A stretch of 64,000 nucleotides of DNA from Candidatus Latescibacterota bacterium (GCA_965261395.1 OZ253462.1:2144001-2208000), one strand, 5' to 3'; positions 7,675-62,060 are shown, counted from the stretch's first letter. Translations and numbers: made by a program. Notes: generated by a model not told the origin, from the sequence alone.

Positions 7675-7678
7675 GGCC

Positions 7679-26908: not shown

Positions 26909-28093
26909 GGCTTTGTTGCATGAAAACCGGTCGGGGCCGTGTTGGCTTCTTTCGCGTGTGATTTACGCTTTTTTGGTTAGCGGATAGGACTCAGGTTTCG
27001 CCAACGCCCGCATCCGGTTGAGCAAGGCACAGCCCAACCGCGCTTCGGTCTGTTGGTTGGTTAGGGTTCGGGTGCGCAAGGTGTCACCAAGTATCTGTTT
27101 GTAGCGGCCTATCTGCGTTTCGGCTACCGAGCGTCGATGATAGCCGCTCTCGTGTTTCCAACCTCGACGGCCCCGTTTGCGGATGGCTCGAATCGTCTCA
27201 TCGCGGGGCAACGGCTCGGCGTTGGTGTTGCCATGTTGCTCGATTTTGGCGTCCTTGCGCGGCGGAATGATCGGATGAATAGGTGCCCCCTGCTCGGGCG
27301 CGGCCAACGCCTTGAACACCTTGCGTTTGTCATAGGCCCCATCGCCGCCCAACGCCTCCACGGGGGCCTCGATCTGTGCCAGCAACGGCTCCACCTGCCC
27401 CGCATCATCGTGGCTATTCGTCGTCAAGGTCTGCGCGACGATCTCGCCGGTGGCTTCATTAACCCCGAGGTGCAATTTGCGCCACGTGCGCCGCTTGCTC
27501 CAGCCGTGCTGACGCACCTTCCATTCGCCTTCGCCATACACTTTCAGCCCGGTCGAATCCACCACCAAGTGCATCGGTTGGTCTCCCCGCTGGGGCGGCC
27601 ACGCCACGGCTAAACCCGCCTGACGGCGCGACAGGGTCGTGTGATCGGGCACCCGCAGATCCAAGCCCATCAGGGCCAACACCGAAGCGACAAACCCCTC
27701 GGTTTGGCGTAGGGGCAAGTGATACAAAAGACGCAGCGTCAACGCCGTTTGGATGGCGACCTCCGAAAAGGTATATTGCGCCCCCCGCTGAGGCGGCCCT
27801 TGATAATACCAAGCTTCGACGGCCTGGGGCGTGAACCACACCGTCAGACTACCGCGCTGTTGCAGCCCGGCCTCATAGTCGGCCCAATTACGTACCCGGT
27901 ACACGACGTTGGAGCGACGGCGAGGCGAGCGACCAGGCTTGACGGAAGAGGGGCAAGACGATAGGTTGGCCATGACAGGTTCCTTGGACGAGAAAGCATG
28001 GGTTTTTTGGCGAAAGTCGTGCTCAATCTACTGAGGAGCCTGTTTTTATTCAACCGATCAACCGAAAAAAACACCAATTCATGCACCAAAGCC
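26909..28093 (-). mobile_element. IS903-group element, copy 2, with 9-bp target duplication CCTTGAATA
   Basis: Same IRs as copy 1; CCTTGAATA at 26900-26908 and 28094-28102. Confidence 0.96.
26963..27973 (-). CDS. IS5/IS903-group transposase
   Basis: Protein identical to 20573..21583. Confidence 0.95.
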   Translation of the reverse strand: MANLSSCPSSVKPGRSPRRRSNVVYRVRNWADYEAGLQQRGSLTVWFTPQAVEAWYYQGPPQRGAQYTFSEVAIQTALTLRLLYHLPLRQTEGFVASVLALMGLDLRVPDHTTLSRRQAGLAVAWPPQRGDQPMHLVVDSTGLKVYGEGEWKVRQHGWSKRRTWRKLHLGVNEATGEIVAQTLTTNSHDDAGQVEPLLAQIEAPVEALGGDGAYDKRKVFKALAAPEQGAPIHPIIPPRKDAKIEQHGNTNAEPLPRDETIRAIRKRGRRGWKHESGYHRRSVAETQIGRYKQILGDTLRTRTLTNQQTEARLGCALLNRMRALAKPESYPLTKKA

Positions 28094-31122: not shown

Positions 31123-31377
31123 CTACCGACCGACGCTTTGCAATTCTTCGCGTATGACCCGGCGCAGCGTGGCTTCGTCAAGAGCGTCACCCTGCTGCTT
31201 GAGGTACTCTCGCAGCGCCTGATTAATCATGGTTTGATAGCCCATGCCTTCGCTTTCCGACCGAGCGCGAAAGCTATTCAACACCTCGTTATCGAGATAA
31301 ATGGTAACGCGGGTTTTGCCTCTCTGGGCTGCGACCGGCCCCCGCTTCCCCTGACTGAAATCATATTCCTTCTTCAT
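31123..31377 (-). CDS. brnA: BrnA antitoxin
   Basis: EYDFS..KTRVTIYLD..GYQTMINQALR. Confidence 0.9.
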   Translation of the reverse strand: MKKEYDFSQGKRGPVAAQRGKTRVTIYLDNEVLNSFRARSESEGMGYQTMINQALREYLKQQGDALDEATLRRVIREELQSVGR

Positions 31378-31633
31378 AATTTCGCTGCTCCGCTTGAGTA
31401 GCTCTCCGAGCTGATATAAGCCTAATAGTTTCCTGGCGATAGGTATACACTACGACGAGGATACGCCCTAAAGCATCTAAGCCTATCGTTACGAACCTCT
31501 GCTCTTCATCAACCCGATCATCTTCGATCGTCACGCCATAGGGATCGAATAACACAGGTTCTGCATCCGAGAAAGCAACGCCATGTTTTGCAAAATTTGC
31601 GCTTGCTTTAGGCGGATCCCATCTGATGTCCAT
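31361..31633 (-). CDS. brnT: BrnT ribonuclease toxin
   Basis: WD..K...N..KHG..F, EQRF..IG, IRLISARRAT. Confidence 0.92.
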   Translation of the reverse strand: MDIRWDPPKASANFAKHGVAFSDAEPVLFDPYGVTIEDDRVDEEQRFVTIGLDALGRILVVVYTYRQETIRLISARRATQAEQRNYEEGI

Positions 31634-31667
31634 GATTGAATATATGTATAATGTGCATACGTTGCTA

Positions 31668-33794
31668 TTAACCGATGATAAAGACCCTGTTACCGGTCTT
31701 GCCGGTAAAGTAGTCGATGACAATCCACAGGCCGTTGCACAGGCTCTCGCCCATAATCAGCCCCAAGAAGAAGCGCACGCTCGCCGCGTAAATCGCCGGC
31801 CCGCCAAAGCGCAGCACGAGCCGCTTGACCGCCCAGGCAATGAGAATGCTGAACCATATCTTGTCCATCAGGTGATTGGCCGCCACGGCAAAACCCAGCG
31901 GGTGCAAAGGCCACCAGAGCACGTGATGCCGCGCCCACATCAGCAAGAGCATGACCGCACCGCCGCCAGCGCAAAAAGTGAGTCCGTCCCAAGCCACGCC
32001 CGCCGGCTCTAGCCCGCGCACCGCAAAGTTGTACACGGTGGACGGCCCGCCCCGAAAAAACCACCCCACCAGATTGATCCCTCCGTGCCGGTACGCCATG
32101 TGCAGCACCATCCAGCACGAGCCAGCCGCGCCAATCAAGATCGCCAGGCACACCCCCCACATCACCACCCGCCGACTCGGGCGCGTCATGTCCTCGACCA
32201 GCTTTAGCCCGTTGGCCAACAGCGCCATCACAAAGATGCGGATGTCGGCACACCAGATATAAGCCAGCGACAAATTGAACACCCCGCTAGTGCCGATCAG
32301 GTTGACGCCCAAGCCGTGTATCATCAGGTCCGGCGCGATCATCGGCGAGCGCACGGCCGCCAACCCAGCCTCGGCCACGATCCGGCTAATCCCAATAAAG
32401 ATCAACAGCGCTAATCCAATAAACACCGCCGCCACCCATAATTGCACCCCCATCAGCCACAGCCACCCCACCATCGTCCCCACGCCAGCCAGCAAGGCGC
32501 AGACCGCACCGCGATACGAGACGATCTCGTCGCTATCGTCGATGTCGCGCGCGCCCCACAACGCCTTGCGAAACACCCGCTTCAGGTGCTCGCGGCCCAT
32601 CCATAGGCCGGCCAACACCAGCGCCAGCAACGCGCCGCCGCCCTGATAGGCCAGATAGGGCTGGGAGGCAATGCCATAGACGAACTGCTGCTTGGACGTC
32701 AGGCCCAGCAGCAGCAGGACCTCGGACTCGGCCCGGACCAAGAGCTGGAAGATCCACAGACCAGCTGAGATGCTCGTGCTGATCAAATAAGAAAAGCCCA
32801 CCATCGCGAAGATGACCCGCAGTTGCAAACGCTGGCCGAAATAGGGCATGCTCCAATTCAAGTTTACGTTGGGCATCGACGGCTCGTACTGGTGCAGGGC
32901 CTCAAGCGACCCCCACAGCACGGGGATGGCGCAACCATACCACATGGCCCGGCTCTTAAAAAAGCGGTTGACCAAACCCCGGCCCTCGCCCTGCACCATG
33001 GCCGCTCCCACCTGCGCTACTGGGTACGCCAGCCGCTCGCGGTCCATCCACTGCCGCCGCAAGATCACGGCCGCGGCAACCATCGTCGCGTAGAGCGCAA
33101 TGAGAAACACCGCCCACCACAACAGCGGCTCGGCCCAAGCCCCATAGGGGATTTCCCCGCCCTCGAAGAAAGCGCGGTTGTCCTCGCCGTCGTCAACCAA
33201 GATCGCGTGCTCGGGCAAGAGTGGGCCGAGCTTTTCCTGCCACTGGTTTTGCGGCGTGCCGTAATAGGCAAAGGCCGCGAGAATGGGCAGCAACTGCTGG
33301 CTCATGCCCATCGTGCACAGGGCCGAGACCATCAAGAGCATGATGTACACCAAGACCAAGTCGGCGCGGTCGAGGGCCAGCGATCCGCCGTGCCAGACTA
33401 GGATCGCATTGAGCAGCACCGAGGCCACCAAAAAGGAGGCAAACCACAGGCCCGGCTTAAACAGGTCGATCTGCGGCTGGGGCAGGTAATACGCCAGATA
33501 AAGACCCAGCGCTACCGCTACCGCGCTCAGCGCCCAGACCCCGTTCCGCGCCACCACCTTGAACAGAACGTTGAGCAGGCCGATGAGCACGAGAAACAGA
33601 AAGATCGCGCCTGGAGTATTGAAATCCCACGCCATAAAGGTCGAGTGCATGGCCATGTTGGCGTATGGCGCACCAATGGCGAGAAAGAAGCTGAGAAAGA
33701 TGCCCGTCCAAAAGCCGCGCCAAGTCACGCCGACTGCGGCCCCCGAACGAGATTTAGGGGAGGTGGCAAAGGTGGAGGGAATGGACCGCTGCAA
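31668..33794 (-). CDS. Large polytopic membrane protein (DUF6785/DUF6784-like, putative transporter)
   Basis: RRQW...ERLAYP, SRIVAEAG, WWPLHPLGF; many TM helices. Confidence 0.7.
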   Translation of the reverse strand: MQRSIPSTFATSPKSRSGAAVGVTWRGFWTGIFLSFFLAIGAPYANMAMHSTFMAWDFNTPGAIFLFLVLIGLLNVLFKVVARNGVWALSAVAVALGLYLAYYLPQPQIDLFKPGLWFASFLVASVLLNAILVWHGGSLALDRADLVLVYIMLLMVSALCTMGMSQQLLPILAAFAYYGTPQNQWQEKLGPLLPEHAILVDDGEDNRAFFEGGEIPYGAWAEPLLWWAVFLIALYATMVAAAVILRRQWMDRERLAYPVAQVGAAMVQGEGRGLVNRFFKSRAMWYGCAIPVLWGSLEALHQYEPSMPNVNLNWSMPYFGQRLQLRVIFAMVGFSYLISTSISAGLWIFQLLVRAESEVLLLLGLTSKQQFVYGIASQPYLAYQGGGALLALVLAGLWMGREHLKRVFRKALWGARDIDDSDEIVSYRGAVCALLAGVGTMVGWLWLMGVQLWVAAVFIGLALLIFIGISRIVAEAGLAAVRSPMIAPDLMIHGLGVNLIGTSGVFNLSLAYIWCADIRIFVMALLANGLKLVEDMTRPSRRVVMWGVCLAILIGAAGSCWMVLHMAYRHGGINLVGWFFRGGPSTVYNFAVRGLEPAGVAWDGLTFCAGGGAVMLLLMWARHHVLWWPLHPLGFAVAANHLMDKIWFSILIAWAVKRLVLRFGGPAIYAASVRFFLGLIMGESLCNGLWIVIDYFTGKTGNRVFIIG

Positions 33795-39385: not shown

Positions 39386-40171
39386 ATGCTACTGACGACC
39401 GACGAAATGCGCTTCTTCAAGCGCAACGGCTACCTCATCAAGCGAGGCGTGCTCGACCCCGCGCTCATGGAGCGCGCCCGCGCCCGGCTGTGGGACGGTG
39501 CCCCTCCGGGCCGCACTCGCCAAGACCCCGACACTTGGGTTGGCCCCTTCCGCGAAGACGAAGAAAACCTCGACGGAGCCAACCACCGCCGAGGCTTCCG
39601 CTGGAACTTCCGCGAGCCGGGCGACGAGGAGTGGATGGTGCGCCTGCTCGCTACCGACCCCAAGGTGTGGGCCATGGCCGAACAAATGCTCGGCAAAGGC
39701 CAGCTCGTCCAGCCCGAGCGCATCCGCGGCATCTACTGCACCTTGCCCTACGGCGACCACCCGCCCCAAACCCTAGGCTGCCACACCGACGGCCATCCCT
39801 TCCACCTCGGCGCGGTCGGCTACATCGACGACGTGCCACCCAACGGCGGCAGCTTCATGGTCTGGCCCGAAAGCCATCGCGCCTTCTACCCGACCTTCAC
39901 CTCGCAGTACCTCCGCGACCAAAACGAAGCTGCCTACGAAAAAGTGCGCACCGCATTCAACCAGCGCACCCCCGTCGATACCCACGGCCAAGCCGGCGAC
40001 ATCGTCTTCTGGCACCACCGCCTCGGCCACATGGCTAGCCCGAACACCTCGCGCCAATTGCGCCAAGCCGTGCTCTACGATTTTCTCAAGCAGGATATCG
40101 AACAAACCCAACAGGAGCCGCCGCAAAAGGACATGTGGCGCGACTGGTCGGACGAGATGCGCGCCATCTAG
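39386..40171 (+). CDS. PhyH-family dioxygenase
   Basis: FFKRNGY, CHTD, GGSFMVWPESH, GDIVFWHHRLGH; GGAGG RBS. Confidence 0.85.
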   Translation: MLLTTDEMRFFKRNGYLIKRGVLDPALMERARARLWDGAPPGRTRQDPDTWVGPFREDEENLDGANHRRGFRWNFREPGDEEWMVRLLATDPKVWAMAEQMLGKGQLVQPERIRGIYCTLPYGDHPPQTLGCHTDGHPFHLGAVGYIDDVPPNGGSFMVWPESHRAFYPTFTSQYLRDQNEAAYEKVRTAFNQRTPVDTHGQAGDIVFWHHRLGHMASPNTSRQLRQAVLYDFLKQDIEQTQQEPPQKDMWRDWSDEMRAI

Positions 40172-41055
40172 CCGGCAAACGCATCCGAGGGTACGCCGCG
40201 CACCCCGAGATTGACTCGTACCAGCGACCCAGCCAAAGGCTGAGCCTGCCGCGCCTCGTCATCCAAACCCCGGCAAGCCGAAGTGATGTAGAGCTGGTCC
40301 AAGCCCGCCCCGCCAAAGGCGCAGGACGTCACATTGGACATGGGCAGTTCCAAGTGGCGCAGCAACTCCCCAGAGCGAGGGTCGTAACACAGGACGCACC
40401 ACCCTCCGAACACGGCGATCCACAAGGCGTCTGCCTCGTCGATGGCCATGCCGTCTAACACCCCCGGCCCCCCGTATTCCACCACCACGCGCTCGTTGCT
40501 GATGGCCCCGCTGTCGCGGCAGTAGTCGTATGCACGCACATTGTTCAAGCCAGAGTCAATGAAGTACATGGTCTGCTGGTCGGCGCTCCAGACGATGCCG
40601 TTGGATATGCTGACCGGCGCGACCTTCTGGCTCACCGAGTGATCTACGTCGAGACAGTAGAGCGCACCTTGGTCCCGGGCACCCCCAAACTCCATCGTCC
40701 CTGCCCACAACCGCCCAGCCGGGTCGCACTTGCCGTCGTTGAATCGGTTGGCCGGGAGGTCGCGCTCCGGGTCCTCGCCGAGAGGCACCATGCGCTCCGT
40801 CCGCAAGTCGATGTGGGCAAAGCCGTTGTGCAAAGCCACGACGAGGCCGCCGCTCTGCCGCTTGACCACCGTGCCCACAGCTTGGCACGTGGGAATGGTG
40901 CGGTTGATTCCGCTCACCGGATCGTACACATAGACCTCGTGACCGAGAATATCGACCCAGTACAACAACTCGTCATCCGCGTCCCACACGGCCCCTTCGC
41001 CGATGAGCGCATCCTTTTCCACGACTAGGTCGGGTGCTATCTTTTCTCTGTTCAT
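40168..41055 (-). CDS. SMP-30/gluconolactonase family protein
   Basis: GEG.VWD, RFNDGKCDP.GR, SNGI.WS, DGMAID, TSCAFGG. Confidence 0.93.
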   Translation of the reverse strand: MNREKIAPDLVVEKDALIGEGAVWDADDELLYWVDILGHEVYVYDPVSGINRTIPTCQAVGTVVKRQSGGLVVALHNGFAHIDLRTERMVPLGEDPERDLPANRFNDGKCDPAGRLWAGTMEFGGARDQGALYCLDVDHSVSQKVAPVSISNGIVWSADQQTMYFIDSGLNNVRAYDYCRDSGAISNERVVVEYGGPGVLDGMAIDEADALWIAVFGGWCVLCYDPRSGELLRHLELPMSNVTSCAFGGAGLDQLYITSACRGLDDEARQAQPLAGSLVRVNLGVRGVPSDAFAG

Positions 41056-41133: not shown

Positions 41134-42129
41134 ATGACCGCTTTCACCTATCAAGACTTCGACCGCCAGCTCTGGGATCAAGAACTCGAAGACTTCGTCC
41201 CCACCACGGTTTACGACATGCACACGCACCTGTGGTCTGAGGACCACCGAGGCTCCTTGACGGGCGCGCCTACCGGCCTGCGCGAGGAGATCGACTACCG
41301 CGATCACCTCGACTGGGCGGCTAAACTCTACCCAGGCCGCGCCTTCCACATGCTGGCCTTGGGCACCCCGATACCGGGCATGGATGCCGCAGGGCACAAC
41401 GCCTGGATGGCGGCCCAGCTTGCCGCCGACCCCGAATCCGCGATCAACATGATGGTCACCCCGGATATGACGCCCGAATACGTGGCGGCCCAAGTCGATG
41501 AATATGGATTCCTCGGGCTCAAACCCTACCGCACCTTTGCCCCAGACCCAGCCGGTGCCCGCATCTGCGACTTCCTCCCGGAATCCCTCATCGAACTCGC
41601 CCACCACAAGAAGCTGGCCATCACCATGCACCTCGCCAAACCCACCGGCCCAGCCGACCCAGAAAACCAACGCGACTTAACGCGCTACACCCGCGAATAC
41701 CCCAACGCGCAGTGGATTTTGGCCCACTGCGCCCGCTCGTTCAATTCCTTTATGATGGAAGAGGCCGTCCACTTCCTGTGCGATCTGCCCAATATATGGT
41801 ACGACACCTCAGCGGTGAACGACCTGTATTCTCACTATTTGCTGATGAAACACGAGGACCGCAAGCGGGTGATGTTCGGGTCGGACAACGTGGTCGCTGG
41901 CTGTGCGCGCGGCAAGTACATCACCTATGGTCGCGCCTGGCTGTTCTATCCTGGGGACGATTCCGGCACGCCGCACTGCGACTCGCGGGCCACGCTCGTC
42001 ATCTACGAACAACTGCGCCAAGAGCGGCAAGTGGCCGAGATGCTGCAACTAACGCCCGCGGAAATCGAAGATCACTTTGCCGGGAATGCGCAGCGGTTTT
42101 TGGCGATGATGCGCGGACAGACTGCGTAG
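41134..42129 (+). CDS. Amidohydrolase_2 family metal-dependent hydrolase
   Basis: DMHTH, LAHCAR, YDTS, MFGSD, GNAQR. Confidence 0.88.
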   Translation: MTAFTYQDFDRQLWDQELEDFVPTTVYDMHTHLWSEDHRGSLTGAPTGLREEIDYRDHLDWAAKLYPGRAFHMLALGTPIPGMDAAGHNAWMAAQLAADPESAINMMVTPDMTPEYVAAQVDEYGFLGLKPYRTFAPDPAGARICDFLPESLIELAHHKKLAITMHLAKPTGPADPENQRDLTRYTREYPNAQWILAHCARSFNSFMMEEAVHFLCDLPNIWYDTSAVNDLYSHYLLMKHEDRKRVMFGSDNVVAGCARGKYITYGRAWLFYPGDDSGTPHCDSRATLVIYEQLRQERQVAEMLQLTPAEIEDHFAGNAQRFLAMMRGQTA

Positions 42130-42136
42130 CGTTCGT
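42055..42136. repeat. Direct repeat A, left copy (3' end of the amidohydrolase gene)
   Basis: 82 bp, 6 mismatches to 44469..44550 by manual alignment. Confidence 0.93.
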
Positions 42137-42194
42137 CAATGTGCTTCTTGAAGCACAGGTGCTTATACTTTAGATATCCATCTGGAGACCGGGA

Positions 42195-42440
42195 GTGAAT
42201 CAACAAAAGCGCAATGAGCGCAAATTCAAAAACTGGACTGATTTACAAGATGGTGGACGACAATACTGGTACGATGTCCCCGGTCGTCAGGGATGGAAGG
42301 CACGCTATGTAAAGGAAGTAAACGAGAGCGAAGAGACGGTACGATTCTACCAGCAAATCTACGACCAAGATGGACAGTTGGTAGAAGTACATCAGAAGTA
42401 TCCAGAAGATACCGGGCACCAACTCGTTGGAAAGGAGTAA
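42195..42440 (+). CDS. Small hypothetical protein, possible toxin of a TA-like pair
   Basis: 81 aa, tightly coupled to the next ORF; function inferred from size and context only. Confidence 0.65.
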   Translation: MNQQKRNERKFKNWTDLQDGGRQYWYDVPGRQGWKARYVKEVNESEETVRFYQQIYDQDGQLVEVHQKYPEDTGHQLVGKE

Positions 42441-42443
42441 GCC

Positions 42444-43181
42444 ATGGAACTCATCACGTCTGAAGTGCTCGCAGACAAAATAAGGACCTACTTACAGCAC
42501 CGATCGTCCCTCGCAGAGTTGGTAGAATGGGCAGAAAACGCGATGATGGACGGCGAGTTTGAGGAAACGAATGACTATGCGATCCGCGATATTACGGGTC
42601 GCTTAGGCGTTGCAGACGTAAAGACATTTAGCTTGAGCAAGGAAGATTTCGAGCAGTTTCTTTCGCAGTTGGAGCATACAGTACGGAAAGAGAACGGGAA
42701 CATGGCTATTCCGAATGGTTTATTGAAGTGGGACATCCCCCAGTTATCGGAAGCACTGCAAATTCCGCAAGACGATGTGCATGATTACTTCACCGATGGC
42801 CGCCGAGTATCCTTTCTACTCGAGCGACGCATAGCTTACCAAGTGCTCAAGGGCTCGCTAGCCAGTAGCGAAGGAGCGGGCTATGACGTACTGGATTCCA
42901 CAGGCCACAAATGGGAAGTCCGCAGTGTGTCCAGAAATGGTATCTATTTTTGTCCCAGCTATATGGTTGGATCAGGAAGGCGCTTTGAAGAGAATGGTTT
43001 TCTACAGAAATTAGACGAGATCGCCGGCTATATTGTCTCTGACATCGAATGTTTCCCCTCCGTACCGTACTGGCAAATTCAGGCGGACACGGTACGAGCT
43101 TGGTGGCTTCATGGGCAGCTTGGTGCAGCGTCGAGGATAAGCCGCGCCAAGGCTCTAGCCTTACTCAGGAGTATATCGTGA
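42444..43181 (+). CDS. Small helical domain fused to a putative restriction endonuclease
   Basis: C-terminal part from internal ATG 42702 has E..YD..KWEVRS, a PD-(D/E)xK-like pattern; stop overlaps the MTase start. Confidence 0.6.
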   Translation: MELITSEVLADKIRTYLQHRSSLAELVEWAENAMMDGEFEETNDYAIRDITGRLGVADVKTFSLSKEDFEQFLSQLEHTVRKENGNMAIPNGLLKWDIPQLSEALQIPQDDVHDYFTDGRRVSFLLERRIAYQVLKGSLASSEGAGYDVLDSTGHKWEVRSVSRNGIYFCPSYMVGSGRRFEENGFLQKLDEIAGYIVSDIECFPSVPYWQIQADTVRAWWLHGQLGAASRISRAKALALLRSIS

Positions 43182-44443
43182 CTACACCCCAACTCGAATT
43201 ATTCCCCCCTGAGCCTCCTCGACTACGGCCTCTAAACGCCAAGGAATTCGCCGACGAAATCCAAGCCTTTGCGGATTTTGGCAAAGAGACGAACATCCTC
43301 GACTTTCCCGATCCCGCCATTTCCATTCCGGTGTACGTCAACGAGTTCTGGACCTCCAAGCAGCGCGCCGCCCACTCGCTCCACGAGGTCTCCTATCGCG
43401 CCTGTTTCAAGCCGCAATTGCCGAGGTTTTTCATTAGCCGCCTGACGCAACCCGGCGACGCGGTGTACGACCCGTTCATGGGGCGCGGCACCACTGTCCT
43501 CGAAGCGGCGCTGTTGGGCCGCCGCCCCATCGGCTGCGACATAAATCCTCTCAGCGAGCACCTAGTCCGCCCTCGCCTAGATCCACCCGCATGGAACGAG
43601 GTAGAGACGCGCTTAATGGCGCTGGACCTCGATAAATCGAGCGAGGTCTGGGACGATCTCCTTGTTTTTTATCATCCTAATACTCTCCACCAAATCGCCA
43701 ACCTGCGCTCCTACCTCCTCACGCGCCGCCAAGAGGGGACCCTAGATCGCGCCGATGCGTGGATTCAGATGGTGGCGACCAACCGCCTGACCGGGCACTC
43801 GCCGGGATTTTTCTCCGTATATACGCTGCCGCCTAATCAGGCGGTGTCCATCGAGTCGCAAAAACGCATCAACCAAAAACGCGCTCAAGTGCCGCCTGAA
43901 CGCGACATAAAGGCCATCATCCTCCGCAAGACGCGATCCTTACTGAGCAAGCTGCAAGCACACGATCTGGAAACGCTGACGGCGAATATCCCCCTGCTTA
44001 TAACCGGCTCGTCTGACAATACCTCCGCCATCGTCAGTGAATCCATCCAACTGGCCGTTACCTCGCCGCCCTTTTTGGACATTGTCAACTACCAAGCAGA
44101 CAACTGGCTGCGCTGCTGGTTTAACGGCATCGACGCCAAGGAGGTGGCTATATGGCAATTGAAAAAACCAGCGGAGTGGCAAGCAGCGATGACCCGTACC
44201 TTCCGAGAGTTGCATCGGGTCCTCGCAAGCGGGGGCTTTGTTGCCTTTGAGGTGGGCGAGGTCCGCAATGGCAAAATCCTACTGGAAACCCTCGTCGTGC
44301 CCGCGGCCATGGAGGCTGGCCTCAAGCCGCTGATGGTTTTGGTCAACGATCAGATGTTCACCAAAACCGCAAACTGCTGGGGCGTGGACAACCGCACAAA
44401 AGGCACCAACACCAATCGGATCGTCCTGATCGGTAAGCCGTAG
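43178..44443 (+). CDS. N4/N6 site-specific DNA methyltransferase
   Basis: DPFMGRGTT (motif I) then TSPPF (motif IV); GTG start with AGGAG. Confidence 0.9.
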   Translation: MTTPQLELFPPEPPRLRPLNAKEFADEIQAFADFGKETNILDFPDPAISIPVYVNEFWTSKQRAAHSLHEVSYRACFKPQLPRFFISRLTQPGDAVYDPFMGRGTTVLEAALLGRRPIGCDINPLSEHLVRPRLDPPAWNEVETRLMALDLDKSSEVWDDLLVFYHPNTLHQIANLRSYLLTRRQEGTLDRADAWIQMVATNRLTGHSPGFFSVYTLPPNQAVSIESQKRINQKRAQVPPERDIKAIILRKTRSLLSKLQAHDLETLTANIPLLITGSSDNTSAIVSESIQLAVTSPPFLDIVNYQADNWLRCWFNGIDAKEVAIWQLKKPAEWQAAMTRTFRELHRVLASGGFVAFEVGEVRNGKILLETLVVPAAMEAGLKPLMVLVNDQMFTKTANCWGVDNRTKGTNTNRIVLIGKP

Positions 44444-44468
44444 AGGAATTGCCCTAGCCCCCCATCCA

Positions 44469-44550
44469 CCCACGGAAGTCGAAGATCACTTTGCCGGGAA
44501 TGCCCAGCGGTTTTTGGCGATGATGCGCGGACCGGCTGCGTAGCGTCCGT
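44469..44550. repeat. Direct repeat A, right copy (orphan amidohydrolase 3' end)
   Basis: Encodes EVEDHFAGNAQRFLAMMRGPAA*. Confidence 0.93.
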
Positions 44551-45578
44551 TACCCTCTCGGCAGTGGCAGTTCCACCTTCGTACTACCCTCGGCCTGTGA
44601 CCGCAGCGCGGCTACCATGATTTCCAGCACGTGCCGGCCACGCACCGCCGGCGACGAACTGGACGCGTCGCCCTGTATCGCCTGCGCCAGCTCCTGCACA
44701 GCCGGAATCAGATTCGCGCCAAAAGGACTGGCATACCCGCGGCCCGGCGGCGGCGACACGGCCTCGGGCGTCCCCTCAGGAGCATCGGTCTTCCAAGCCA
44801 TGCACTGCTGATCGGTCATCCAGAAGCGACCATCCGTGCCCTGTAGGTCTAGCTCGAACATCTGCGGCGTCCGCTTGGCGCAATTGATCAGCCCGCGCAC
44901 CCCATTGGCAAACTCCACGATGATCGTCGATCCGGGATCGAATTGCGGATCTTTGCCGCCTCGACCGTCGTACACCGGGCCGTAGTTTTCAAACCCGCGC
45001 TCGTGCGCGGCGATCACCCACACTGGCTCAGCGTCCGCAAAAAAGCAGACCGCATCCACCAAGTGCGTCCCATTGCGAAAGAGCATGGCGCGCCGACCTC
45101 CGAGATGCGCCACAATCCTAGTCAGGCTGCCGATCTCGCCGTTGCGGATGGCCGTGCGCACGGCCTGATAGGAAGGTAGCCAACTGCGCGTGTGATCCAC
45201 CGACAACACCGCGTTGTGGCGAGCGAGCGCGTCGATGATGCGGTCGGCGTCCTCCGCCGTGGTCGCCAGCGGCTTCTCGCAAAAAATGCCGCGTACGCCC
45301 GCGGCCACTGCATCGCAGACTGGGCCGACATGGAGGTGATCCGGGGTGGCCACGCTCACCACGTCGAGGCGTTCCCGTTCCAACATCGCGCGGTAATCCG
45401 CGTATTCGGCGACGGATCCTCGCTCGATCTCGGCCCGCTCGTAAAAGCGCGCCAGCACCTCCGGGTTTATGTCGCAGACCGCCACGAATTCGTATTCCGG
45501 GGCGCGGGCGTATGCATATCCATGACCCCCACCCACTCCAGCGCCAATAACGGCTGCGCGCAATTTGCCTTCAGACAT
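44550..45578 (-). CDS. Gfo/Idh/MocA oxidoreductase
   Basis: VIGAG, VATPDHLH, CEKP, GTHLVD. Confidence 0.92.
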   Translation of the reverse strand: MSEGKLRAAVIGAGVGGGHGYAYARAPEYEFVAVCDINPEVLARFYERAEIERGSVAEYADYRAMLERERLDVVSVATPDHLHVGPVCDAVAAGVRGIFCEKPLATTAEDADRIIDALARHNAVLSVDHTRSWLPSYQAVRTAIRNGEIGSLTRIVAHLGGRRAMLFRNGTHLVDAVCFFADAEPVWVIAAHERGFENYGPVYDGRGGKDPQFDPGSTIIVEFANGVRGLINCAKRTPQMFELDLQGTDGRFWMTDQQCMAWKTDAPEGTPEAVSPPPGRGYASPFGANLIPAVQELAQAIQGDASSSSPAVRGRHVLEIMVAALRSQAEGSTKVELPLPRG

Positions 45579-45698
45579 CTCTCGTTCCTTTCTCAAGTTG
45601 TCATGCGCCCGCGCACAAAAGCCGCTGACGCCGCCACCTGCTCCTCTTCGAGACTGTGCAATATCAACGACCCGTCAAAGCCGATCTGCCGCAAGAGC
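45570..45698. repeat. Direct repeat B, orphan copy (isomerase 3' end, RBS and Gfo start)
   Basis: 129 bp, 1 mismatch to 47883..48011. Confidence 0.95.
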
Positions 45699-45811
45699 AC
45701 TTTCGTATCACTAGGTAAGCTGATCAGGATTCGTTACGGCACTCATCATGTTGCTCTTCCTCCGTCTTCGTAAGGACTTGAGGCGACATCTCCAGCATCA
45801 TGTTTCTTCCC

Positions 45812-46579
45812 CTACTTGAACCGATTGGGACACTCCACCTGAAGCGGGGCGGGGCCGCGCCGCCCATATAGCCGCCGCCGCGGTAGTTCGATACCGCCTT
45901 TTATCAAACCAGCCCAGACCGGCGTTTGTTCGTGACCAGTGCGGCTTGCCTCTGCGCGAACCTGTTTTGTGACCTCCTCCATCAGGACGCCAATGTCTGT
46001 CCAGTTAGGTCCGTCTTGGAGCACGCGCAGTATGGCCGCGGTAAAGAGGCCATGCTGTCCGAGTTCCAAGGCCTCTTGATCGTCCTTAGCTGCTGCAAGC
46101 ACGATTCGACCGGCACCGCCAAGATCGGTAACGCCAAGTACTCCACTACGCACGACGGGTAGCCCCTCGACAACACGAGCCGGCGCACCACCGCTGAAAC
46201 AACAGTCGAGAATGACCAAGCTAGCCCGCGCCGCCGTTCTCTTGAGGCGATAAGCGAGCTCTTGCATCAGGATTGTTGTCTGATCAACTGCATTCAGATC
46301 CGCATCGAACGGAACAAGCTGGTGGCCTGGAGTTCCGTGACCCGCGAAGAATACGATGCCCGTATCGTCTTGAGCCGCATCGCCGAGGGCCGAGTCAAGG
46401 GATTTACGAATCGAATCGACCGTCGCCTCATCATCGAGAAGCCTCTTGTCGGCGATGCCCTCGACGGAGTCTTTGAAGAGAGCCCAGAGAGCGATGGCGT
46501 CCTTGGTGGCACCGGTGAGTTCGTGGATTCGGGGGTCTCTGTATTTGTTGATTCCGATGAAAACGGCTCGAAGTGCCAT
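45812..46579 (-). CDS. Caspase-like (peptidase C14) domain protein, probably truncated
   Basis: IGINKY, FAGHG, ILDCCFSG, HGLFT, QTP; degenerate tail after GGIELP. Confidence 0.85.
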   Translation of the reverse strand: MALRAVFIGINKYRDPRIHELTGATKDAIALWALFKDSVEGIADKRLLDDEATVDSIRKSLDSALGDAAQDDTGIVFFAGHGTPGHQLVPFDADLNAVDQTTILMQELAYRLKRTAARASLVILDCCFSGGAPARVVEGLPVVRSGVLGVTDLGGAGRIVLAAAKDDQEALELGQHGLFTAAILRVLQDGPNWTDIGVLMEEVTKQVRAEASRTGHEQTPVWAGLIKGGIELPRRRLYGRRGPAPLQVECPNRFK

Positions 46580-46643
46580 ATCCTATTCAATCCTCAATCC
46601 ATGTTGTTGCCGAGAACACTCTCGTAGCCAACCAAGTAGGTCG

Positions 46644-47825
46644 TCATGCCTCTTCCGACAAGGCGGCGAATGCCTCATGGTCAACAGTTAGCACTTTGAG
46701 AGTTTGCTTGTGAACACCGATGTCGTGCTCGATCAGGAGATCAATTAGCTTTTCGCCGTCAATGAGTGTGATCGGCGCAGCCCCGCTTTCAAACGCGGCT
46801 TCCTTGGTGCCTTTCGCGAACTGGGAAGTCGCAATGATGGTTCCTCGGACAGCGTTAAACCTGTGAAGTGAGCCACGGAGGGCATCGAGTTCCTTGCGCT
46901 GGATGGTCCGCCGGTGGCGTTTAGCTTGGACGACTTCACGCACTGAAGTAATGCCGAGTTCAATATCGGCAATCACGTCAACGCCCCCGTCACCCGATGC
47001 AGGTGTCACTTCGACATTTTGGTAACCCATCTCCTCAAGGAGACGCTTCACAAGGTGCTCAAAGGCGGAGGCGTCCATGTTGATCAGGAGATCGCGGAGG
47101 CGCTCTCGGACCGACTCCTCTTGTTTCTTGACCAGCGACGGAAGCTCCTGCTGCTCATCATTGCCGAGAACTTCCTCGGTTCTAACCAGTTGGAGATATA
47201 CGAGGCCCGCATCGGTTAATGAGTACATCGCACTCCTGCGATTCACGAAGCCTCGGTCAATGAGATTGTTTAGTCGCCATTGGAGCGTGTTGCGAAAAGT
47301 CGAGCGACTGCCAAATGGAGAAGAATGGCGCTTGAGGTACTCGGTCCATTCTTCGAGTATGCCACTCGCACGTGTCGGCCCGTTGTTGGCCACAAGGGTC
47401 AAGAGCTTAACAAGCCCTTCCTGCTCATCGATGAGGGATTCTGTCTCACCCCGTTCGTGGTTGATGAAGTTTTGGCCGGCTTTGGTTAGGCGAAGATTAC
47501 TATCAGTATCATCTTCAAGCATTTCGTATTTTTGGCTCAGGTGCCAGACACCGGCGGTGTACCTTGGGTTGACAGTCTTACCGCTTTTCGTCCAGATAGC
47601 CCAAGCTAAGTCTTGATCTTCGCCCGAGAGGCGTTCGAGGATCCATGTGTCGGGATCCTTCCAATCGACAGGTTTCTGGGGCGTTCCACGCAGTTCGCTA
47701 ATCGTAGCCTGCAATCTGGTGATCTGTTTTTTGGGCCGCCCAGACCAGACCTGAAGGAGATGGCGAACTTTACGGTACATCGGAAACCACGGTACGCGGA
47801 CACGCTGCTTCGTCTCGTCAGTCAT
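46644..47825 (-). CDS. mrr: Mrr-family restriction endonuclease with an extended N-terminal region
   Basis: FEHLV..LL..MGY, GDGGVDV, VQAKR, ITLIDGEKL. Confidence 0.88.
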   Translation of the reverse strand: MTDETKQRVRVPWFPMYRKVRHLLQVWSGRPKKQITRLQATISELRGTPQKPVDWKDPDTWILERLSGEDQDLAWAIWTKSGKTVNPRYTAGVWHLSQKYEMLEDDTDSNLRLTKAGQNFINHERGETESLIDEQEGLVKLLTLVANNGPTRASGILEEWTEYLKRHSSPFGSRSTFRNTLQWRLNNLIDRGFVNRRSAMYSLTDAGLVYLQLVRTEEVLGNDEQQELPSLVKKQEESVRERLRDLLINMDASAFEHLVKRLLEEMGYQNVEVTPASGDGGVDVIADIELGITSVREVVQAKRHRRTIQRKELDALRGSLHRFNAVRGTIIATSQFAKGTKEAAFESGAAPITLIDGEKLIDLLIEHDIGVHKQTLKVLTVDHEAFAALSEEA

Positions 47826-47882
47826 CTAGATAATTCCGTTTGGAGAGAACGCGGACGGACGCCAATTGGGGGAATAAAATTT

Positions 47883-48011
47883 TTCAGACATCTCTCGTCC
47901 CTTTCTCAAGTTGTCATGCGCCCGCGCACAAAAGCCGCTGACGCCGCCACCTGCTCCTCTTCGAGACTGTGCAATATCAACGACCCGTCAAAGCCGATCT
48001 GCCGCAAGAGC
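47883..48011. repeat. Direct repeat B, in-gene copy
   Basis: Matches 45570..45698. Confidence 0.95.
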
Positions 48012-48730
48012 GCCAAGTAGCGATCGTAGTCGAGCACACCCGTGCCCGCGGCTTGGTGCCCGGCGTCGCCATCCCGCTCCAAGTCCTTGGCGTGGGCCAA
48101 CCGAATTGAATCCCCGAGCAAGTCAAACGCCTCGTCTAAGATCTCGCGCATCCTCGGCAACTGGCCGGCGTGGAACAGGTTGGCTCCGTCGATGACCACC
48201 TGCAAATGCTTGGACCGCACCTCGTCGAGCAAACGCCGCGCCTTCGGCGCCGAATCCACCACATTGTTAACCTCCGGCTCGAACACGAGGGTTGCGCCCT
48301 GCGCCTCGGCGATCGCCACGGCCTCCTCCATGGCCGCGACCATATCGGCCCATGCGGCTGGCGTGCTGTTGTCGGGATGGCCGCCCCACATATAGTCGGG
48401 GTTGCGCGTTCCGGTGGAAAAGGTAATCAACTCCGTCCCCAACTTGCCGCTCGCAGCAGCCAGCGCGGCGAGCCAACCCATCCCGGCGCGACGCTTTTCC
48501 AAGTCGGGATCGATGATATTAAAAGTCCCCGACAGCGCGGCGATCTCAATCCCCCGCGTTGCGTGCGCAGCGCGAATGCGCTCGCAATCGGCGTCTGTCA
48601 GCGCCACTGGATCAATGCCCGCAGCCGTCAAATCGAGCTGAACGGCCTCCAAGCCAGCCGCCTGCACCCCGTCGAGGCTTTCCTCCAGCGTCGGCCGCGC
48701 AAAAACCTTGTGGAAAATCCCTAGCTTCAT
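47906..48730 (-). CDS. Sugar phosphate isomerase/epimerase (xylose-isomerase-like TIM barrel)
   Basis: FEPE, IDGAN, AHAKD, G.G.LDY. Confidence 0.88.
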   Translation of the reverse strand: MKLGIFHKVFARPTLEESLDGVQAAGLEAVQLDLTAAGIDPVALTDADCERIRAAHATRGIEIAALSGTFNIIDPDLEKRRAGMGWLAALAAASGKLGTELITFSTGTRNPDYMWGGHPDNSTPAAWADMVAAMEEAVAIAEAQGATLVFEPEVNNVVDSAPKARRLLDEVRSKHLQVVIDGANLFHAGQLPRMREILDEAFDLLGDSIRLAHAKDLERDGDAGHQAAGTGVLDYDRYLALLRQIGFDGSLILHSLEEEQVAASAAFVRGRMTT

Positions 48731-48837: not shown

Positions 48838-50538
48838 TCATTTTGCCTCGCCCCAGTTCCGACCGACCCCCGCTTCGACGCGGATCGGCACGCGAAACGG
48901 CCGGCCCTTTGCGTCCTCCACGGGCGACTCCATGATCGACGCGATGAGATCGACGTATTCGGCAGCCTTGTCCCGAGGCGCTTCGAAGATTAGTTCGTCG
49001 TGGATTTGAACGAGCATTCGCGTCTCTGACGGGAGCGCGTTGTCTAAGGCGATCATCTTGTTGCGGCAGATGTCCGCGGCAGTGCCCTGAATCATCGAGT
49101 TAAAAGCGGTGCGGACATTGCCCTCGGGGAATCGCCGCCGCCGGCCGAACATGTTGACGATATGTCCGTGCCGGCGCGTGTAAGCGAGCACATCCTTGCT
49201 GACCTGCCGCACGTTTTTATAGGTCGTAAAGTAGGCTTCGATGAACGCTTTTGCTTCTGCGAGCGAAAGCCCGGTCGCGGACGACAACGCCTTAGCGCCC
49301 ATTCCGTAGAGCAGCCCGAAGTTGAGCGCTTTCGCCATATCCCGTTCCCCAGCAGTCACCTCTTCAATCGGTTTGTCGAAGATGTCGGCGACCGTCTTTT
49401 TATGGAGATCGATGTCTTGTTGGAACGCCTCCATCATCTTCGGGTCCTGGGCGTAATGGGCGGCGCAGCGCAGTTCTACTTGCGAAAAATCCACGTCGAT
49501 GAGGACATGATCCTCCTCGGCGACGAAAGCCGAGCGGATGGTCGCGCCTCGGGGGATTGCCTGCAGGTTCGGGTCGTTCGAGGAAAGGCGTCCGGTGATC
49601 GTCCCCGTCTGATTGAAGTTGCAGTGGATGCGACCCGTTTCCGGCAAGACGAGCTGCGGAAGTTTATCGACGTAGTTCGCGATCAGGGTCATCAGTTCTC
49701 GGTATTCGAGAATGAGCGGGACGACGGGGTGGCGGTGGCGCAAGGCTTCGAGGGCCCATTGGTTGACGGACTGGCGGCCGCGGCGCGTTTGGCGGCCTGA
49801 GGGCAGGTCTAAATCGCCGAACAACACTTTGCCGAGTTCAACGGTCGAATTGACGTGAAACCTCCTTCCGGCATGTGCCCATATTTCCTCTTCCAGTTCG
49901 CGGATGCGCAGCCGGTATTCGTCCCCGATGCGCTTGAGATGGTCGATGTCGAGGCGGATGCCCGTCTGTTCCATCTTCCGCAGAATGCGCATCGTCGGCA
50001 GTTCGTATTCGTAGTATAGATGGGCGAGCGTCGGCAGCTTGTCGATTTCCGGCTTGAACAATTCGTACAGTCGGAACGTGTAATCCGCGTCGGCGCAGGC
50101 GTACTCGGCGAGGTCGGGATTTTTGCCGAACAGCGTCAGTTGATGGAGGTCAACAAAGTCAACGGCTTCCTCGTCGAGCAGGTCCCGCGCGAGCCGTTTG
50201 AGCGACTTCGGGCGGTTTTCGTCGAGCAGGTGAGCCGCGATGAGCGTGTCGAAAATCTCCGCGCCTTCGAGGTCGATGTCGTGCCGTTCGAGGATCGTCA
50301 AATCGAACTTCGCGTGGTGGAATGCGAGCCGCTTTTGCCGCAGCATTTGCTGCAACTTCGGCGCGTCAATCGCCTCTGCGGGCAACCAGAACGCGCGGCG
50401 TGGCTCGCCGCAGAACGAAATCCCGGAGAGCCGCGCGCGCATCTTGTTCAGCGAATCGCCCTCCGTATCGACGGCCAGCGCGGCGTACGGTGCGATTTGC
50501 GCTAGGTCGCTCAGAACGCGGTAGTCCTTCTCCGCCAT
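48838..50538 (-). CDS. Family A DNA polymerase, Klenow-like (3'-5' exonuclease plus polymerase, no 5' nuclease)
   Basis: DTE, HHAKFD, YACAD, TGRLSS.DPNLQ, DFSQVELR, AKALNFGLLYG, QIHDEL. Confidence 0.93.
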   Translation of the reverse strand: MAEKDYRVLSDLAQIAPYAALAVDTEGDSLNKMRARLSGISFCGEPRRAFWLPAEAIDAPKLQQMLRQKRLAFHHAKFDLTILERHDIDLEGAEIFDTLIAAHLLDENRPKSLKRLARDLLDEEAVDFVDLHQLTLFGKNPDLAEYACADADYTFRLYELFKPEIDKLPTLAHLYYEYELPTMRILRKMEQTGIRLDIDHLKRIGDEYRLRIRELEEEIWAHAGRRFHVNSTVELGKVLFGDLDLPSGRQTRRGRQSVNQWALEALRHRHPVVPLILEYRELMTLIANYVDKLPQLVLPETGRIHCNFNQTGTITGRLSSNDPNLQAIPRGATIRSAFVAEEDHVLIDVDFSQVELRCAAHYAQDPKMMEAFQQDIDLHKKTVADIFDKPIEEVTAGERDMAKALNFGLLYGMGAKALSSATGLSLAEAKAFIEAYFTTYKNVRQVSKDVLAYTRRHGHIVNMFGRRRRFPEGNVRTAFNSMIQGTAADICRNKMIALDNALPSETRMLVQIHDELIFEAPRDKAAEYVDLIASIMESPVEDAKGRPFRVPIRVEAGVGRNWGEAK

Positions 50539-60884: not shown

Positions 60885-62060
60885 GGCTTTGGTGCATGGA
60901 TCGGTATTTTTGGGTTTCTCGGTTGAATAAAGACAGGCTCCTCAGTAGATTGGGCATGACTTTTTTGCGAAAAGACTCTATGCCTTCTCTTCCAAGGAAC
61001 CTGTCCTGTCCAACGTATCGTCTGCTCCGTCTTCGGTCAAGCCCCGTCGCCGTCGCTCGAAGGTTGTGTATCGGGTGCGTAATTGGCCTGATTATGATGC
61101 GGGGCTTACCCAGCGCGGTAGCCTGACGGTGTGGTTTTCCCCCCAAGCGGTCGAAGCGTGGTATTATCAAGGGCCGCGCCAACGGGGGGCGCAATATACC
61201 TTTTCGGACGTAGCCATCCACACGGCGTTGACGTTGCGGCTTATGTATCACTTGCCGCTACGCCAAACCGAGGGGTTTGTCGCTTCCATTGTAGCCTTGA
61301 TGGGCTTGGCTATACGGGTGCCGGATCATACGACCCTCTCGCGGCGTCAGGCTGACTTGACAGTAGCGTTGCCTACCCAGCCCACGGATCAACCCCGGCA
61401 TTGGGTCGTTGATTCGACGGGGTTGAAGGGGTATGGCGAAGGCGAGTGGAAGGTGCGTCAGCACGGCTGGGGCAAGCGGCGCACCTGGCGCAAATTGCAC
61501 CTTGGGGTCGACGAAGCCACCGGCGAGATCGTCGCCCAGACGTTGACGGCCAATCGCCCAGATGATGCCGGGCAGGTCGAGCCGTTGCTGGAGCAAGTCG
61601 CGGCCCCCATCGCGGCGGTGGGCGGGGATGGAGCCTATGATAAACGCAAGGTGTTTGAGGCGTTGGCTGCGCCGGACCGAGGGCCGCCGATCCGGCCGAT
61701 CATTCCGCCGCGCAAAGACGCCAAAATCCAGCAACATGGCAACTGCAACGCGGAGCCGTTGCCCCGCGATGAGACGATCCGAACCATCCGTAGCCGGGGC
61801 CGTCGAACCTGGAAAAAAACCAGTGGCTATCATCGCCGATCCCTCGTCGAAACCCAGATCGGCCGCTACAAACAGAGCCTCGGCGACACCTTGCACGCCC
61901 GAACCCTATCCCACCAACAAACCGAAACACGAGTGGGATGTGCCATACTCAACCGGCTATTGCATTTGGCTAAGCCCGAGTCCTATCCGATAACCAAGGA
62001 AGTCTAAAACACACCAGACAAGGGGCAACACGGCCCCGACAGTTTTCATGCACCAAAGCC
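60885..62060 (+). mobile_element. IS903-group element, diverged copy 3, no target duplication
   Basis: IRs GGCTTTGGTGCATG / CATGCACCAAAGCC; flanks differ. Confidence 0.92.
61006..62007 (+). CDS. IS5/IS903-group transposase (CTG at the ATG-equivalent position)
   Basis: Clearly homologous to copies 1 and 2; in-frame GTG at 61066 is an alternative start. Confidence 0.88.
   Translation: MSNVSSAPSSVKPRRRRSKVVYRVRNWPDYDAGLTQRGSLTVWFSPQAVEAWYYQGPRQRGAQYTFSDVAIHTALTLRLMYHLPLRQTEGFVASIVALMGLAIRVPDHTTLSRRQADLTVALPTQPTDQPRHWVVDSTGLKGYGEGEWKVRQHGWGKRRTWRKLHLGVDEATGEIVAQTLTANRPDDAGQVEPLLEQVAAPIAAVGGDGAYDKRKVFEALAAPDRGPPIRPIIPPRKDAKIQQHGNCNAEPLPRDETIRTIRSRGRRTWKKTSGYHRRSLVETQIGRYKQSLGDTLHARTLSHQQTETRVGCAILNRLLHLAKPESYPITKEV

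Follow-up and report, generated by a model that had tools for sequence, protein, structure and literature searches.

Restriction cassettes between long duplications of core-gene ends in a Candidatus Latescibacterota genome

Two inserts among core genes

We analyzed a 64,000-nucleotide (nt) stretch of DNA from a Candidatus Latescibacterota bacterium (GCA_965261395.1 OZ253462.1:2144001-2208000), here called the window, in which two inserts carrying restriction genes lie among core genes, each between the two copies of a long direct repeat. The window comes from a sponge-associated metagenome-assembled genome (MAG) that consists of one contig of 6.55 Mb and is 95% complete; sponge metagenomes contain parts of the stretch. 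All coordinates given below without a further label are positions in the window. The gene order is SGL, AH, insert 1, GFO, insert 2, XI, and a gene for a family A DNA polymerase (Table 1). The two inserts belong to a known kind, "insertion with long target duplication," and are not a new mobility system, and we argue below that the repeats are probably what is left of a second copy of a core gene.

The core order SGL-AH-GFO-XI is kept across the genus. Among 20 loci compared, there were three variable slots: slot A between AH and GFO, slot B between GFO and XI, and slot C upstream of XI. (Genomes compared are designated G0xx and loci L0xx.) The AH orthologues are 87 to 94% identical at close loci of the same genus and 79% identical in G015 and G023. 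AH and GFO are convergent, with their stop codons 6 to 7 nt apart, and XI has the same orientation as GFO, with 14 nt between them. GFO probably starts with the ATG at 45578; the list of open reading frames (ORFs) has a TTG at 45596.

The repeat around insert 1, D2, is 82 nt long, with copies that are 93% identical and spaced 2,414 nt apart; 2,332 nt lie between them. The repeat around insert 2, D1, is 129 nt long, with copies that are 99% identical and spaced 2,313 nt apart; 2,184 nt lie between them. These repeats are too long to have arisen by chance. Each occurs twice in the 6.55-Mb genome, so neither is a multicopy element. Because of the duplications, both neighbors of each insert are whole, and all the genes flanking the inserts are full length. 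A preliminary description of the window had reported the two inserts, their shared design, and the duplicated gene ends, and we recovered both repeat pairs where it had placed them. It had also drawn attention to the similar periods of 2,414 and 2,313 bp; this similarity is a coincidence, because 35 other isolated pairs in the genome (see below) are spaced 945 to 12,875 bp apart.

Insert 1, in slot A, carries a type II restriction-modification (RM) pair preceded by an ORF of 81 amino acids (aa). This ORF (42195-42440) matched no Pfam or PADLOC family; the cluster c16 gene of which it is a remnant (276 to 284 aa, unknown function) occurs in G007, G013, and G019. The methyltransferase has a likely GTG start at 43178 that overlaps the stop codon of the endonuclease gene; the listed ORF begins at 43049. 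Relatives have the methyltransferase next to AH at 13 of the 20 loci, and the endonuclease accompanies it at just 3 of these (G007, G013, and G019); therefore, the endonuclease has mostly been lost, leaving an orphan methylase. The endonuclease is also found in G003, where it is not syntenic. In seven genomes (G001, G002, G009, G011, G012, G020, and G021) a lectin-like gene and a pyrroloquinoline quinone (PQQ) dehydrogenase gene come after the methylase, and the same two genes follow the full RM pair in G013 and G019. Slot A is empty, with one copy of D2, in G018 and G004; in G006, which has no GFO, one copy of D2 comes directly after AH.

A second copy of D2 is present in the assemblies of four other species (G010, G019, G020, and G022). 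The D2 duplication therefore predates the split of at least five species and is neither recent nor visibly unstable. In six relatives (G001, G007, G010, G019, G020, and G022) the left copy of AH has a chimeric C terminus, joined after the hexamer GCGCGG at 42116. The four of these that kept the second copy of D2 hold the native AH terminus in the downstream remnant. A chimeric left end combined with a native end in the remnant is what integration through homology predicts.

Other sequences meet at the same nucleotide. Contigs in two public sequencing runs, X15 and X19, leave the window exactly after 42116 and continue into further, different sequence. Thus, at least four continuations share this nucleotide: the native end, the two chimeric ends in relatives, and the X15/X19 sequence. 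The shared breakpoint may be one old junction with later replacements, or it may be a preferred break point. Two further observations concern slot A or its genes. G009 (L019, oriented 7048-10996) has a 1.9-kb tandem duplication of the PQQ-dehydrogenase gene in slot A, with 86% identity. G004 has a second copy of the RM pair elsewhere, 85% identical over 1,538 nt, for which no flanking direct repeat was found at an E value of 1e-4.

Insert 2, in slot B, carries a decayed caspase gene and an Mrr-type nuclease gene. The caspase-domain ORF is the N-terminal part of a 1,005-aa caspase-DEAD-helicase protein that is whole in G002 (PF00656, PF00270, and PF00271). The window lacks about 2.26 kb of this gene, with 45871-45882 shared by the two alignment blocks. 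Relatives of the Mrr protein at 82 to 85% identity occurred in five MAGs, all of the same genus; the MAGs with close relatives are labeled Candidatus Latescibacterota, except for two labeled Gemmatimonadota. The rightmost ~28 nt of the cassette (47855-47882) match DNA from the far side of XI, namely the XI spacer in G001 and G022, which lack Mrr, and the DNA to the right of Mrr in G012 and G013. The joint of this DNA with the second copy of D1 (47882/47883) is illegitimate, with 1 nt of microhomology at most.

Slot B has one copy of D1 at 14 of the 20 loci, is occupied at 3, and is not comparable at 3 (G003, G006, and G008). It is empty in the closest relative, G022, which is 94 to 95% identical. 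G002 has the full caspase-helicase gene plus Mrr with a 120-nt duplication, and G005 has Mrr only. In G018 an unrelated methylase-endonuclease (RM) gene occupies the same GFO/XI boundary, with a different duplication of 41 to 48 nt. The Mrr gene itself lies on either side of XI: downstream, in slot B, in the window, G002, and G005, and upstream, in slot C at exactly the spacer that the ~28 nt match, in G012, G013, and L077. The right-hand junction of Mrr is the same in all three slot-B genomes.

Two of these genomes bear on the origin of D1. In G005, GFO is followed by nt 1 to 43 of D1, 167 nt from the 5' end of XI, Mrr, and an intact XI, in that order. Because both ends of a second XI are kept, the duplication once comprised the whole of XI, and the window's 129 nt mark where a later deletion ended. 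G002 has native DNA lacking Mrr in slot C, including ~50 nt that the Mrr insertion replaced in G012. The remnant in its slot B has the allele type of G001 and G012 and not G002's own. The two D1 copies of G002 are 89% alike and have different nearest relatives: G021 (94%) for the left copy and G022 and G008 (94%) for the right copy. As read from these alignments, the pattern in G002 points to import rather than local duplication.

A homologue of Mrr with 46% identity was found in another phylum, in L081, a Longimicrobiales MAG. It is surrounded by a 643-nt direct repeat (90% identical; oriented 987-1629 and 9359-10001), the copies of which are 8.4 kb apart. This may be another case or just paralogues.

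Table 1. Features of the two inserts and of the adjoining genes; positions are in the window.
Feature	Position	Strand	Basis
SGL, gluconolactonase-type gene	40168-41055	-	ORF/Pfam scan
AH, Amidohydro_2, 331 aa, intact; 3' end is the D2 target	41134-42129	+	PF04909, 5e-16
D2, copy 1: the final 75 nt of AH and 7 nt of the spacer that separates it from the convergent GFO stop	42055-42136		Repeat search, alignment
ORF of 81 aa, truncated remnant	42195-42440	+	About the last 66 codons (from 42240) match a 276- to 284-aa gene, cluster c16
Type II restriction endonuclease, 245 aa	42444-43181	+	PADLOC PDLC03550 REase_II, 4e-43
N6/N4 DNA methyltransferase	43178-44443	+	PF01555; PDLC03325, 6e-197, aligned from residue 45
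D2, copy 2: what is left of the AH 3' end, directly at the GFO stop codon	44469-44550		Repeat search; also in G010, G019, G020, G022
GFO, GFO/IDH/MocA oxidoreductase core gene	44550-45578	-	PF01408, PF22725; 342-aa orthologues
D1, copy 1: first 9 nt of GFO, 14-nt spacer, 106-nt remnant of XI 3' end	45570-45698		Repeat search, alignment
Caspase-domain ORF, 255 aa (Peptidase_C14)	45812-46579	-	PF00656
Mrr-type (type IV-like) nuclease, 393 aa, PADLOC candidate PDC-S02	46644-47825	-	PF04471 (Mrr_cat), 1e-29; PDLC04796, 2e-140
Slot-C DNA (~28 nt) at right end of cassette	47855-47882		Matches relatives' spacer between XI 5' end and small gene
D1, copy 2: first 9 nt of GFO, 14-nt spacer, last 106 nt of intact XI	47883-48011		Repeat search, alignment
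XI, xylose-isomerase-like TIM barrel, 274 aa, intact core gene	47906-48730	-	PF01261, 1e-33
Slot C: family A DNA polymerase with 3'-5' exonuclease	48838-50538	-	PF00476, PF01612; PADLOC RTasPolA, 8e-36

Repeat-flanked cassettes across the genome and in other bacteria

A k-mer scan of the whole genome gave 60 isolated direct-repeat pairs of at least 45 nt. The merged set consisted of 37 pairs of at least 60 nt that were at least 88% identical and 0.9 to 13 kb apart, and both window pairs were among them. When these were sorted by inspection, 20 enclosed defense or toxin-antitoxin cargo, 5 enclosed low-GC genes of unknown function, and 12 were paralogous or tandem genes or copies of insertion sequences (IS). 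The defense and toxin-antitoxin cargo usually had a lower GC content than its flanks. Beyond the window the restriction cargo comprised three more type II RM systems, one type I RM system, and GmrSD. Other defense cargo comprised an AHJR-like nuclease, Schlafen/AlbA proteins, Septu (PtuA/PtuB), Hachiman (HamA/HamB), a type II CBASS operon, PsyrTA, SoFic, an RmuC-type gene, HicAB, and BrnT and PIN pairs. The repeats were 60 to 376 nt long, and their lengths varied between genomes for the same insertion. When six cassettes were checked against relatives, all six had a single-copy empty site in at least one genome: the two window inserts, as described above; L040 in G018, G013, G020, and G005; L032 in G022, G005, G002, G011, and G044; the Septu locus L042 in G043; and the Hachiman locus L054 in at least 12 genomes. 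Thus, further cases and empty alleles, for which the preliminary description had asked that the genome and its relatives be searched, were both found.

The remnants at several of these loci resemble those of XI. At L040 a "HAD fragment" upstream of a XamI-type RM system consists of the 3' 291 nt of HAD joined to its 5' 116 to 130 nt, both in the window genome and in G024. Because both ends of HAD are present, the fragment is a whole HAD gene with an internal deletion. G042 has HAD followed by the RM system with a single HAD, and G002, G010, and G011 keep just 135 to 161 nt of the remnant. Beside L040 is a cassette with the AHJR nuclease, flanked by a 202-nt duplication of the 5' end of ILVD. 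The order ILVD, AHJR, HAD occurs in G001 with no duplication, and in G021 and G044 ILVD is followed by Schlafen without AHJR. At L042, ackA and Septu are contiguous and free of any duplication in G001, G018, and G012, with other DNA downstream; the window genome has an added 75-nt remnant of ackA and then the flank that is found directly after ackA in G043.

The preliminary description had proposed a candidate new mobility system. The pattern has a published precedent, long target duplication, for which the criteria are R and/or M genes, an insert of less than 20 kb, a repeat of more than 30 nt, a related genome with the site empty, and the absence of mobility genes (Furuta 2010; PMC2853133, citing Nobusato 2000). 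The inserts in the window agree with this definition on every point, and for that reason we do not regard them as a new system. Insert 1 has REase_II and MTase_II, and insert 2 has the Mrr_cat, type IV-like nuclease. The inserts and their repeats (82 and 129 nt) are within the stated sizes. D1 is in single copy at 14 of the 20 loci, and D2 is in single copy in G018 and G004. Neither insert contains or adjoins an integrase, transposase, or phage gene. The passages of that paper on this pattern describe cases from all four types, I to IV, among them orphan methylases and a type IV gene standing alone; a start or stop codon often lies within the repeat, so that the neighboring genes stay intact (PMC2853133).

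The likeness extends to the unique direct repeats around defense genes, the single-copy empty sites, and the lack of integrases and transposases. Compared with the same passages, what is new here is the phylum, the frequency in one genome, and the cargo. Candidatus Latescibacterota is not among the genera named there; there are about 20 cases in this one genome; and many of them are not restriction systems (Hachiman, Septu, CBASS, PsyrTA, SoFic, and toxin-antitoxin pairs). Those passages do not describe the duplication of a whole core gene followed by its decay, to which the remnants point here. They leave the mechanism open and suggest a property common to restriction systems, e.g., double-strand breakage (PMC2853133). 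Among the later papers found in a literature search on the mechanism, including PMC4978471 and PMC10423294, the parts consulted did not settle it.

The long-target-duplication paper also puts forward a hypothetical life cycle of insertion, amplification via the repeats, and release, for which the passages give experimental support for the amplification step only (PMC2853133). In Helicobacter pylori, repeats likewise flank type II systems and are in single copy in strains that lack the system, and they are thought to permit spontaneous deletion of these systems (PMC10423294, in the part consulted). That study concerns one naturally competent species, whereas here the repeats have lasted across species and we saw no deletion event. 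Recombination between repeats of 82 to 129 nt would delete the cassettes cleanly, and some of the empty sites may be such deletions. The suggestion that the repeats make the defense genes switchable gained no support, however. D2 is common to at least five species, having been kept through several speciations, and its copies are 93% identical; the slot-A endonuclease has been lost from most relatives; and a gene in insert 2 has decayed.

How the cassettes may have entered

Many defense islands have no mobility gene, and little is understood of the way cassettes get into them. The series of loci described above can be read in order: empty sites, cassettes on either side of a core gene, decaying duplicates, and stacked cassettes. 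This series turns long target duplication, an old descriptive category, into a concrete mechanism that can be tested.

In naturally transformable bacteria, Campbell-type insertion-duplication and homology-facilitated illegitimate recombination allow one homologous exchange to anchor foreign DNA. Either the homologous segment then flanks the insert on both sides or one end is joined illegitimately, and no enzyme encoded by an element is required. The known cases involve laboratory plasmids or marked DNA, whereas the events discussed here are known from their products alone.

We give a probability of about 60% to a process of this kind at the two inserts: integration by homology within a core gene plus one illegitimate joint, with the spare copy of the core gene decaying into the repeat. 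Incoming DNA from another lineage, either a linear piece or a small circle, would carry a cassette already adjoining the core gene. One homologous (RecA-type) exchange inside the resident core gene would be combined with an illegitimate joint at the far end of the cassette, in the topology of Campbell-type or "ends-in" integration. The far end of the cassette would join just upstream, so that the core sequence between the two points would come to lie on both sides. The product would be core gene, cassette, and second copy of the core gene. One copy would stay intact, and the redundant copy would erode by deletion to a piece of 40 to 400 nt, i.e., the direct repeat. In the case of XI and Mrr, the first product would have been GFO, XI, Mrr plus the 28 nt, and XI, and the first copy of D1 in the window and in G002 would be what was left of the left-hand XI after the caspase-helicase gene had replaced the rest. 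Repeated rounds would stack cassettes at one core-gene boundary and create a defense hotspot. Once the repeats existed, homologous recombination with the flanking genes could spread the arrangement, and recombination between the repeats could delete the cassette.

The order of these events and the recombination functions involved are our inference from the arrangements. So is the physical form of the incoming DNA; the products fit a circle (Campbell), a linear "ends-in" piece, and a strand bridging sister chromosomes all alike. The preliminary description had envisaged a single crossover of small circles carrying a piece of the target. The single crossover fits the junction remnants best; the circular form is not distinguishable from the other two. 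Most likely, no dedicated mobility enzyme took part.

The signature of homology anchoring is seen for AH in G010, G019, G020, and G022 and for XI, HAD, ILVD, and ackA. Several findings weigh against this reading or limit it. The first copy of D2 in the window keeps the native AH terminus to 42136, unlike that in the six relatives, and so lacks the signature. The left edge of the second copy of D2 is identical in all five genomes that carry that copy, and no genome compared has an intermediate with a longer AH remnant. For insert 1 it is therefore possible that the duplication was made at the moment of insertion. Both D2 copies of G010 share a private variant, which means that gene conversion blurs the signals of donor and copy origin. 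The nearest-neighbor comparisons rest on 120 to 170 nt and differ by few sites; for the XI fragment of G005 the top matches were 90.5, 90.3, and 90.1%, giving no clear origin. Both ends of the gene are retained in the remnants at just 2 of 25 cassette-like pairs, in this genome or at the same loci in relatives. At L032 there is no donor signal: its copies match each other at 187 of 192 positions (5 differences) and match eight relatives at 185 of 192 at most. (Scoring required the full 192 nt; G022 and G001, which aligned over 189 nt only, were left out.) On this sequence comparison, self-duplication or gene conversion would explain L032 better than a divergent donor, and a very close donor would also fit. 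Finally, no circle, donor molecule, or recombination intermediate was seen in the public runs, which consist of contigs only.

Local tandem duplication of a core gene plus its cassette, followed by deletions and with no DNA from outside, is an unlikely explanation. It also yields core-cassette-core remnants and the joint of far-side DNA to the start of D1. The repeat copies at L032 are each other's closest relatives, as it would predict, and the 1.9-kb duplication in G009 demonstrates that tandem duplications do happen at this locus. However, each of the six genomes with Mrr has one copy of it, and none has two copies of the cassette. Deletion could not have restored the native far side of XI in G002 with the ~50 nt that are replaced in G012, nor does local duplication account for the foreign allele type of the G002 remnant. 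The far side of XI is occupied by a different gene, PolA, in the window and in G005. Local duplication also cannot import cassettes that the lineage lacks, such as that of L032, which is unique to the window genome and present in 0 of 30 other genomes of the genus.

We also consider it improbable that these are true long target-site duplications, in which widely staggered single-strand breaks are filled in after the cassette has been ligated. The agent of breakage would be the cassette's own nuclease, stalled replication, or an unknown enzyme acting in trans. The model is implicit in the original papers and for the IS elements with long duplications, and it agrees with the suggestion, in the passages cited above, that a property common to restriction systems, e.g., double-strand breakage, is at work (PMC2853133). 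One-block repeats and clean empty sites at insert 1, at L032, and at most other pairs fit it well. At XI and HAD, however, a whole gene of 0.7 to 0.9 kb would have had to be duplicated, and the cassette would by chance have to carry DNA from precisely the far border of the duplicated stretch. SoFic, HicAB, and PsyrTA lack an obvious DNA nuclease, and because the pattern extends beyond restriction enzymes in this way, the idea that a cassette is inserted by its own nuclease is weakened. There are no shared ends or motifs that an enzyme could recognize: the best terminal inverted repeats were 5 to 6 nt for the two inserts, which is the level expected by chance, and 5 to 9 nt over all 37 pairs. 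An all-against-all comparison of the 74 cassette ends gave seven short chance matches of 12 to 18 nt and no shared motif. Nor was there a match to Ku in the 95% complete genome, and insertion by Ku-type end joining was rejected. A ComEC homologue is present; it also occurs in 10 of 14 control genomes and so is not diagnostic of competence.

Site-specific integration by a trans-acting tyrosine or serine recombinase, with att sites inside the gene ends, is close to refuted. Integrase islands likewise duplicate the 3' ends of genes, and several different sequences follow directly on the same nucleotide, 42116. Yet when all ORFs between 38.3 and 52 kb were scanned with Pfam, the inserts and their surroundings showed no recombinase or transposase domain. 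The 37 repeats are all different, with no common core motif and one chance match among all pairs, and a given insertion has repeats of different lengths in different genomes. An integrase-mediated island with an att duplication was therefore rejected, for lack of both a recombinase domain and a conserved att core, and a transposon or IS with target duplication was rejected because the inserts contain no transposase and only the 5- to 6-nt inverted matches. Integrase islands with att sites at gene 3' ends, and IS1549 and IS1634, also have direct repeats of the target at both ends; they need an integrase or transposase with defined ends, whereas here there is none and the ends share nothing. A test for integron cassettes found no shared attC-like site at the cassette ends, IntI itself not having been searched for. 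These results bear out the preliminary description in its report of no recombinase, no transposase, no evident terminal inverted repeats, and intact flanks, and they give no support to the trans-acting enzyme that it had offered as one way of entry.

That the repeats are assembly artifacts from strain mixtures has a negligible probability: the genome is a MAG and several related strains are present in the runs in which it is found, but the repeat copies differ from one another, the same duplications, with sequence differences of their own, recur in other species' genomes that were assembled independently (D2 in G010, G019, G020, and G022 and D1 in G002), and contigs in other runs, which may include the source sample, span the junctions of repeat and cassette.

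In four public sequencing runs (of 24 found), no contig joined across either insert; because contigs collapse repeats of 82 to 129 nt and drop rare variants, this result has no bearing on excision. The one long skip, in X1 from 45251 to 48139 with 31 other letters between and a shorter side of 22 nt, looks like another organism's arrangement.

Whether integration by homology followed by decay applies more widely is a tentative matter. It is possible, though on balance somewhat doubtful, that the long target duplications of restriction systems in general are decayed second copies of core genes and not target-site duplications, and that defense islands generally grow without a dedicated enzyme. 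If so, they would grow cassette by cassette at core-gene boundaries, with any defense system as cargo, in phyla remote from the model organisms as well. In annotation, short orphan pieces of core-gene ends that lie beside low-GC genes are a cheap marker of recently added defense cargo.

Other features of the window and the genome

The family A polymerase in slot C is 566 aa long and has no 5' nuclease domain. It is found in the window, G005, G010, G011, and G021, with a partial match in slot C of G004; it may be linked to defense. Ten other genomes have in slot C two small genes of 72 to 144 aa that belong to no family.

GFO is absent altogether from G006 (L016) and G008 (L018). In G006, AH with its one copy of D2 is followed by ~44 nt and then by XI with a partial D1. 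The absence of GFO at these two loci implies that GFO, too, behaves like a cassette here.

One IS5-type transposase gene (DDE_Tnp_1_5) occurs three times in the window, at 20573-21583, 26963-27973, and 61066-62007. Two of the copies score identically and one is slightly shorter; the gene is also found inside the repeat-flanked cassettes L046 and L061, and the element looks active. The last two copies are the transposase genes nearest to the inserts, 14 kb and 13 kb away. Next to an IS copy is a 790-aa protein with an N6_Mtase domain (18199-20571). This gene and an ORF for a BrnT-family toxin (31361-31723) are further defense or toxin-antitoxin genes in the window.

At L053 (6868-13807; G000:C1:5155337-5162276) a 79-nt duplication of the same design splits an ABC-transporter operon between its permease and ATPase genes. 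The insert encodes proteins of 433 and 1,761 aa, the larger of which has only a weak match, to AAA_22. Outside the window, the segment G000:C1:315548-319751 contains dense exact repeats of 40 to 45 nt and looks like a large CRISPR array.

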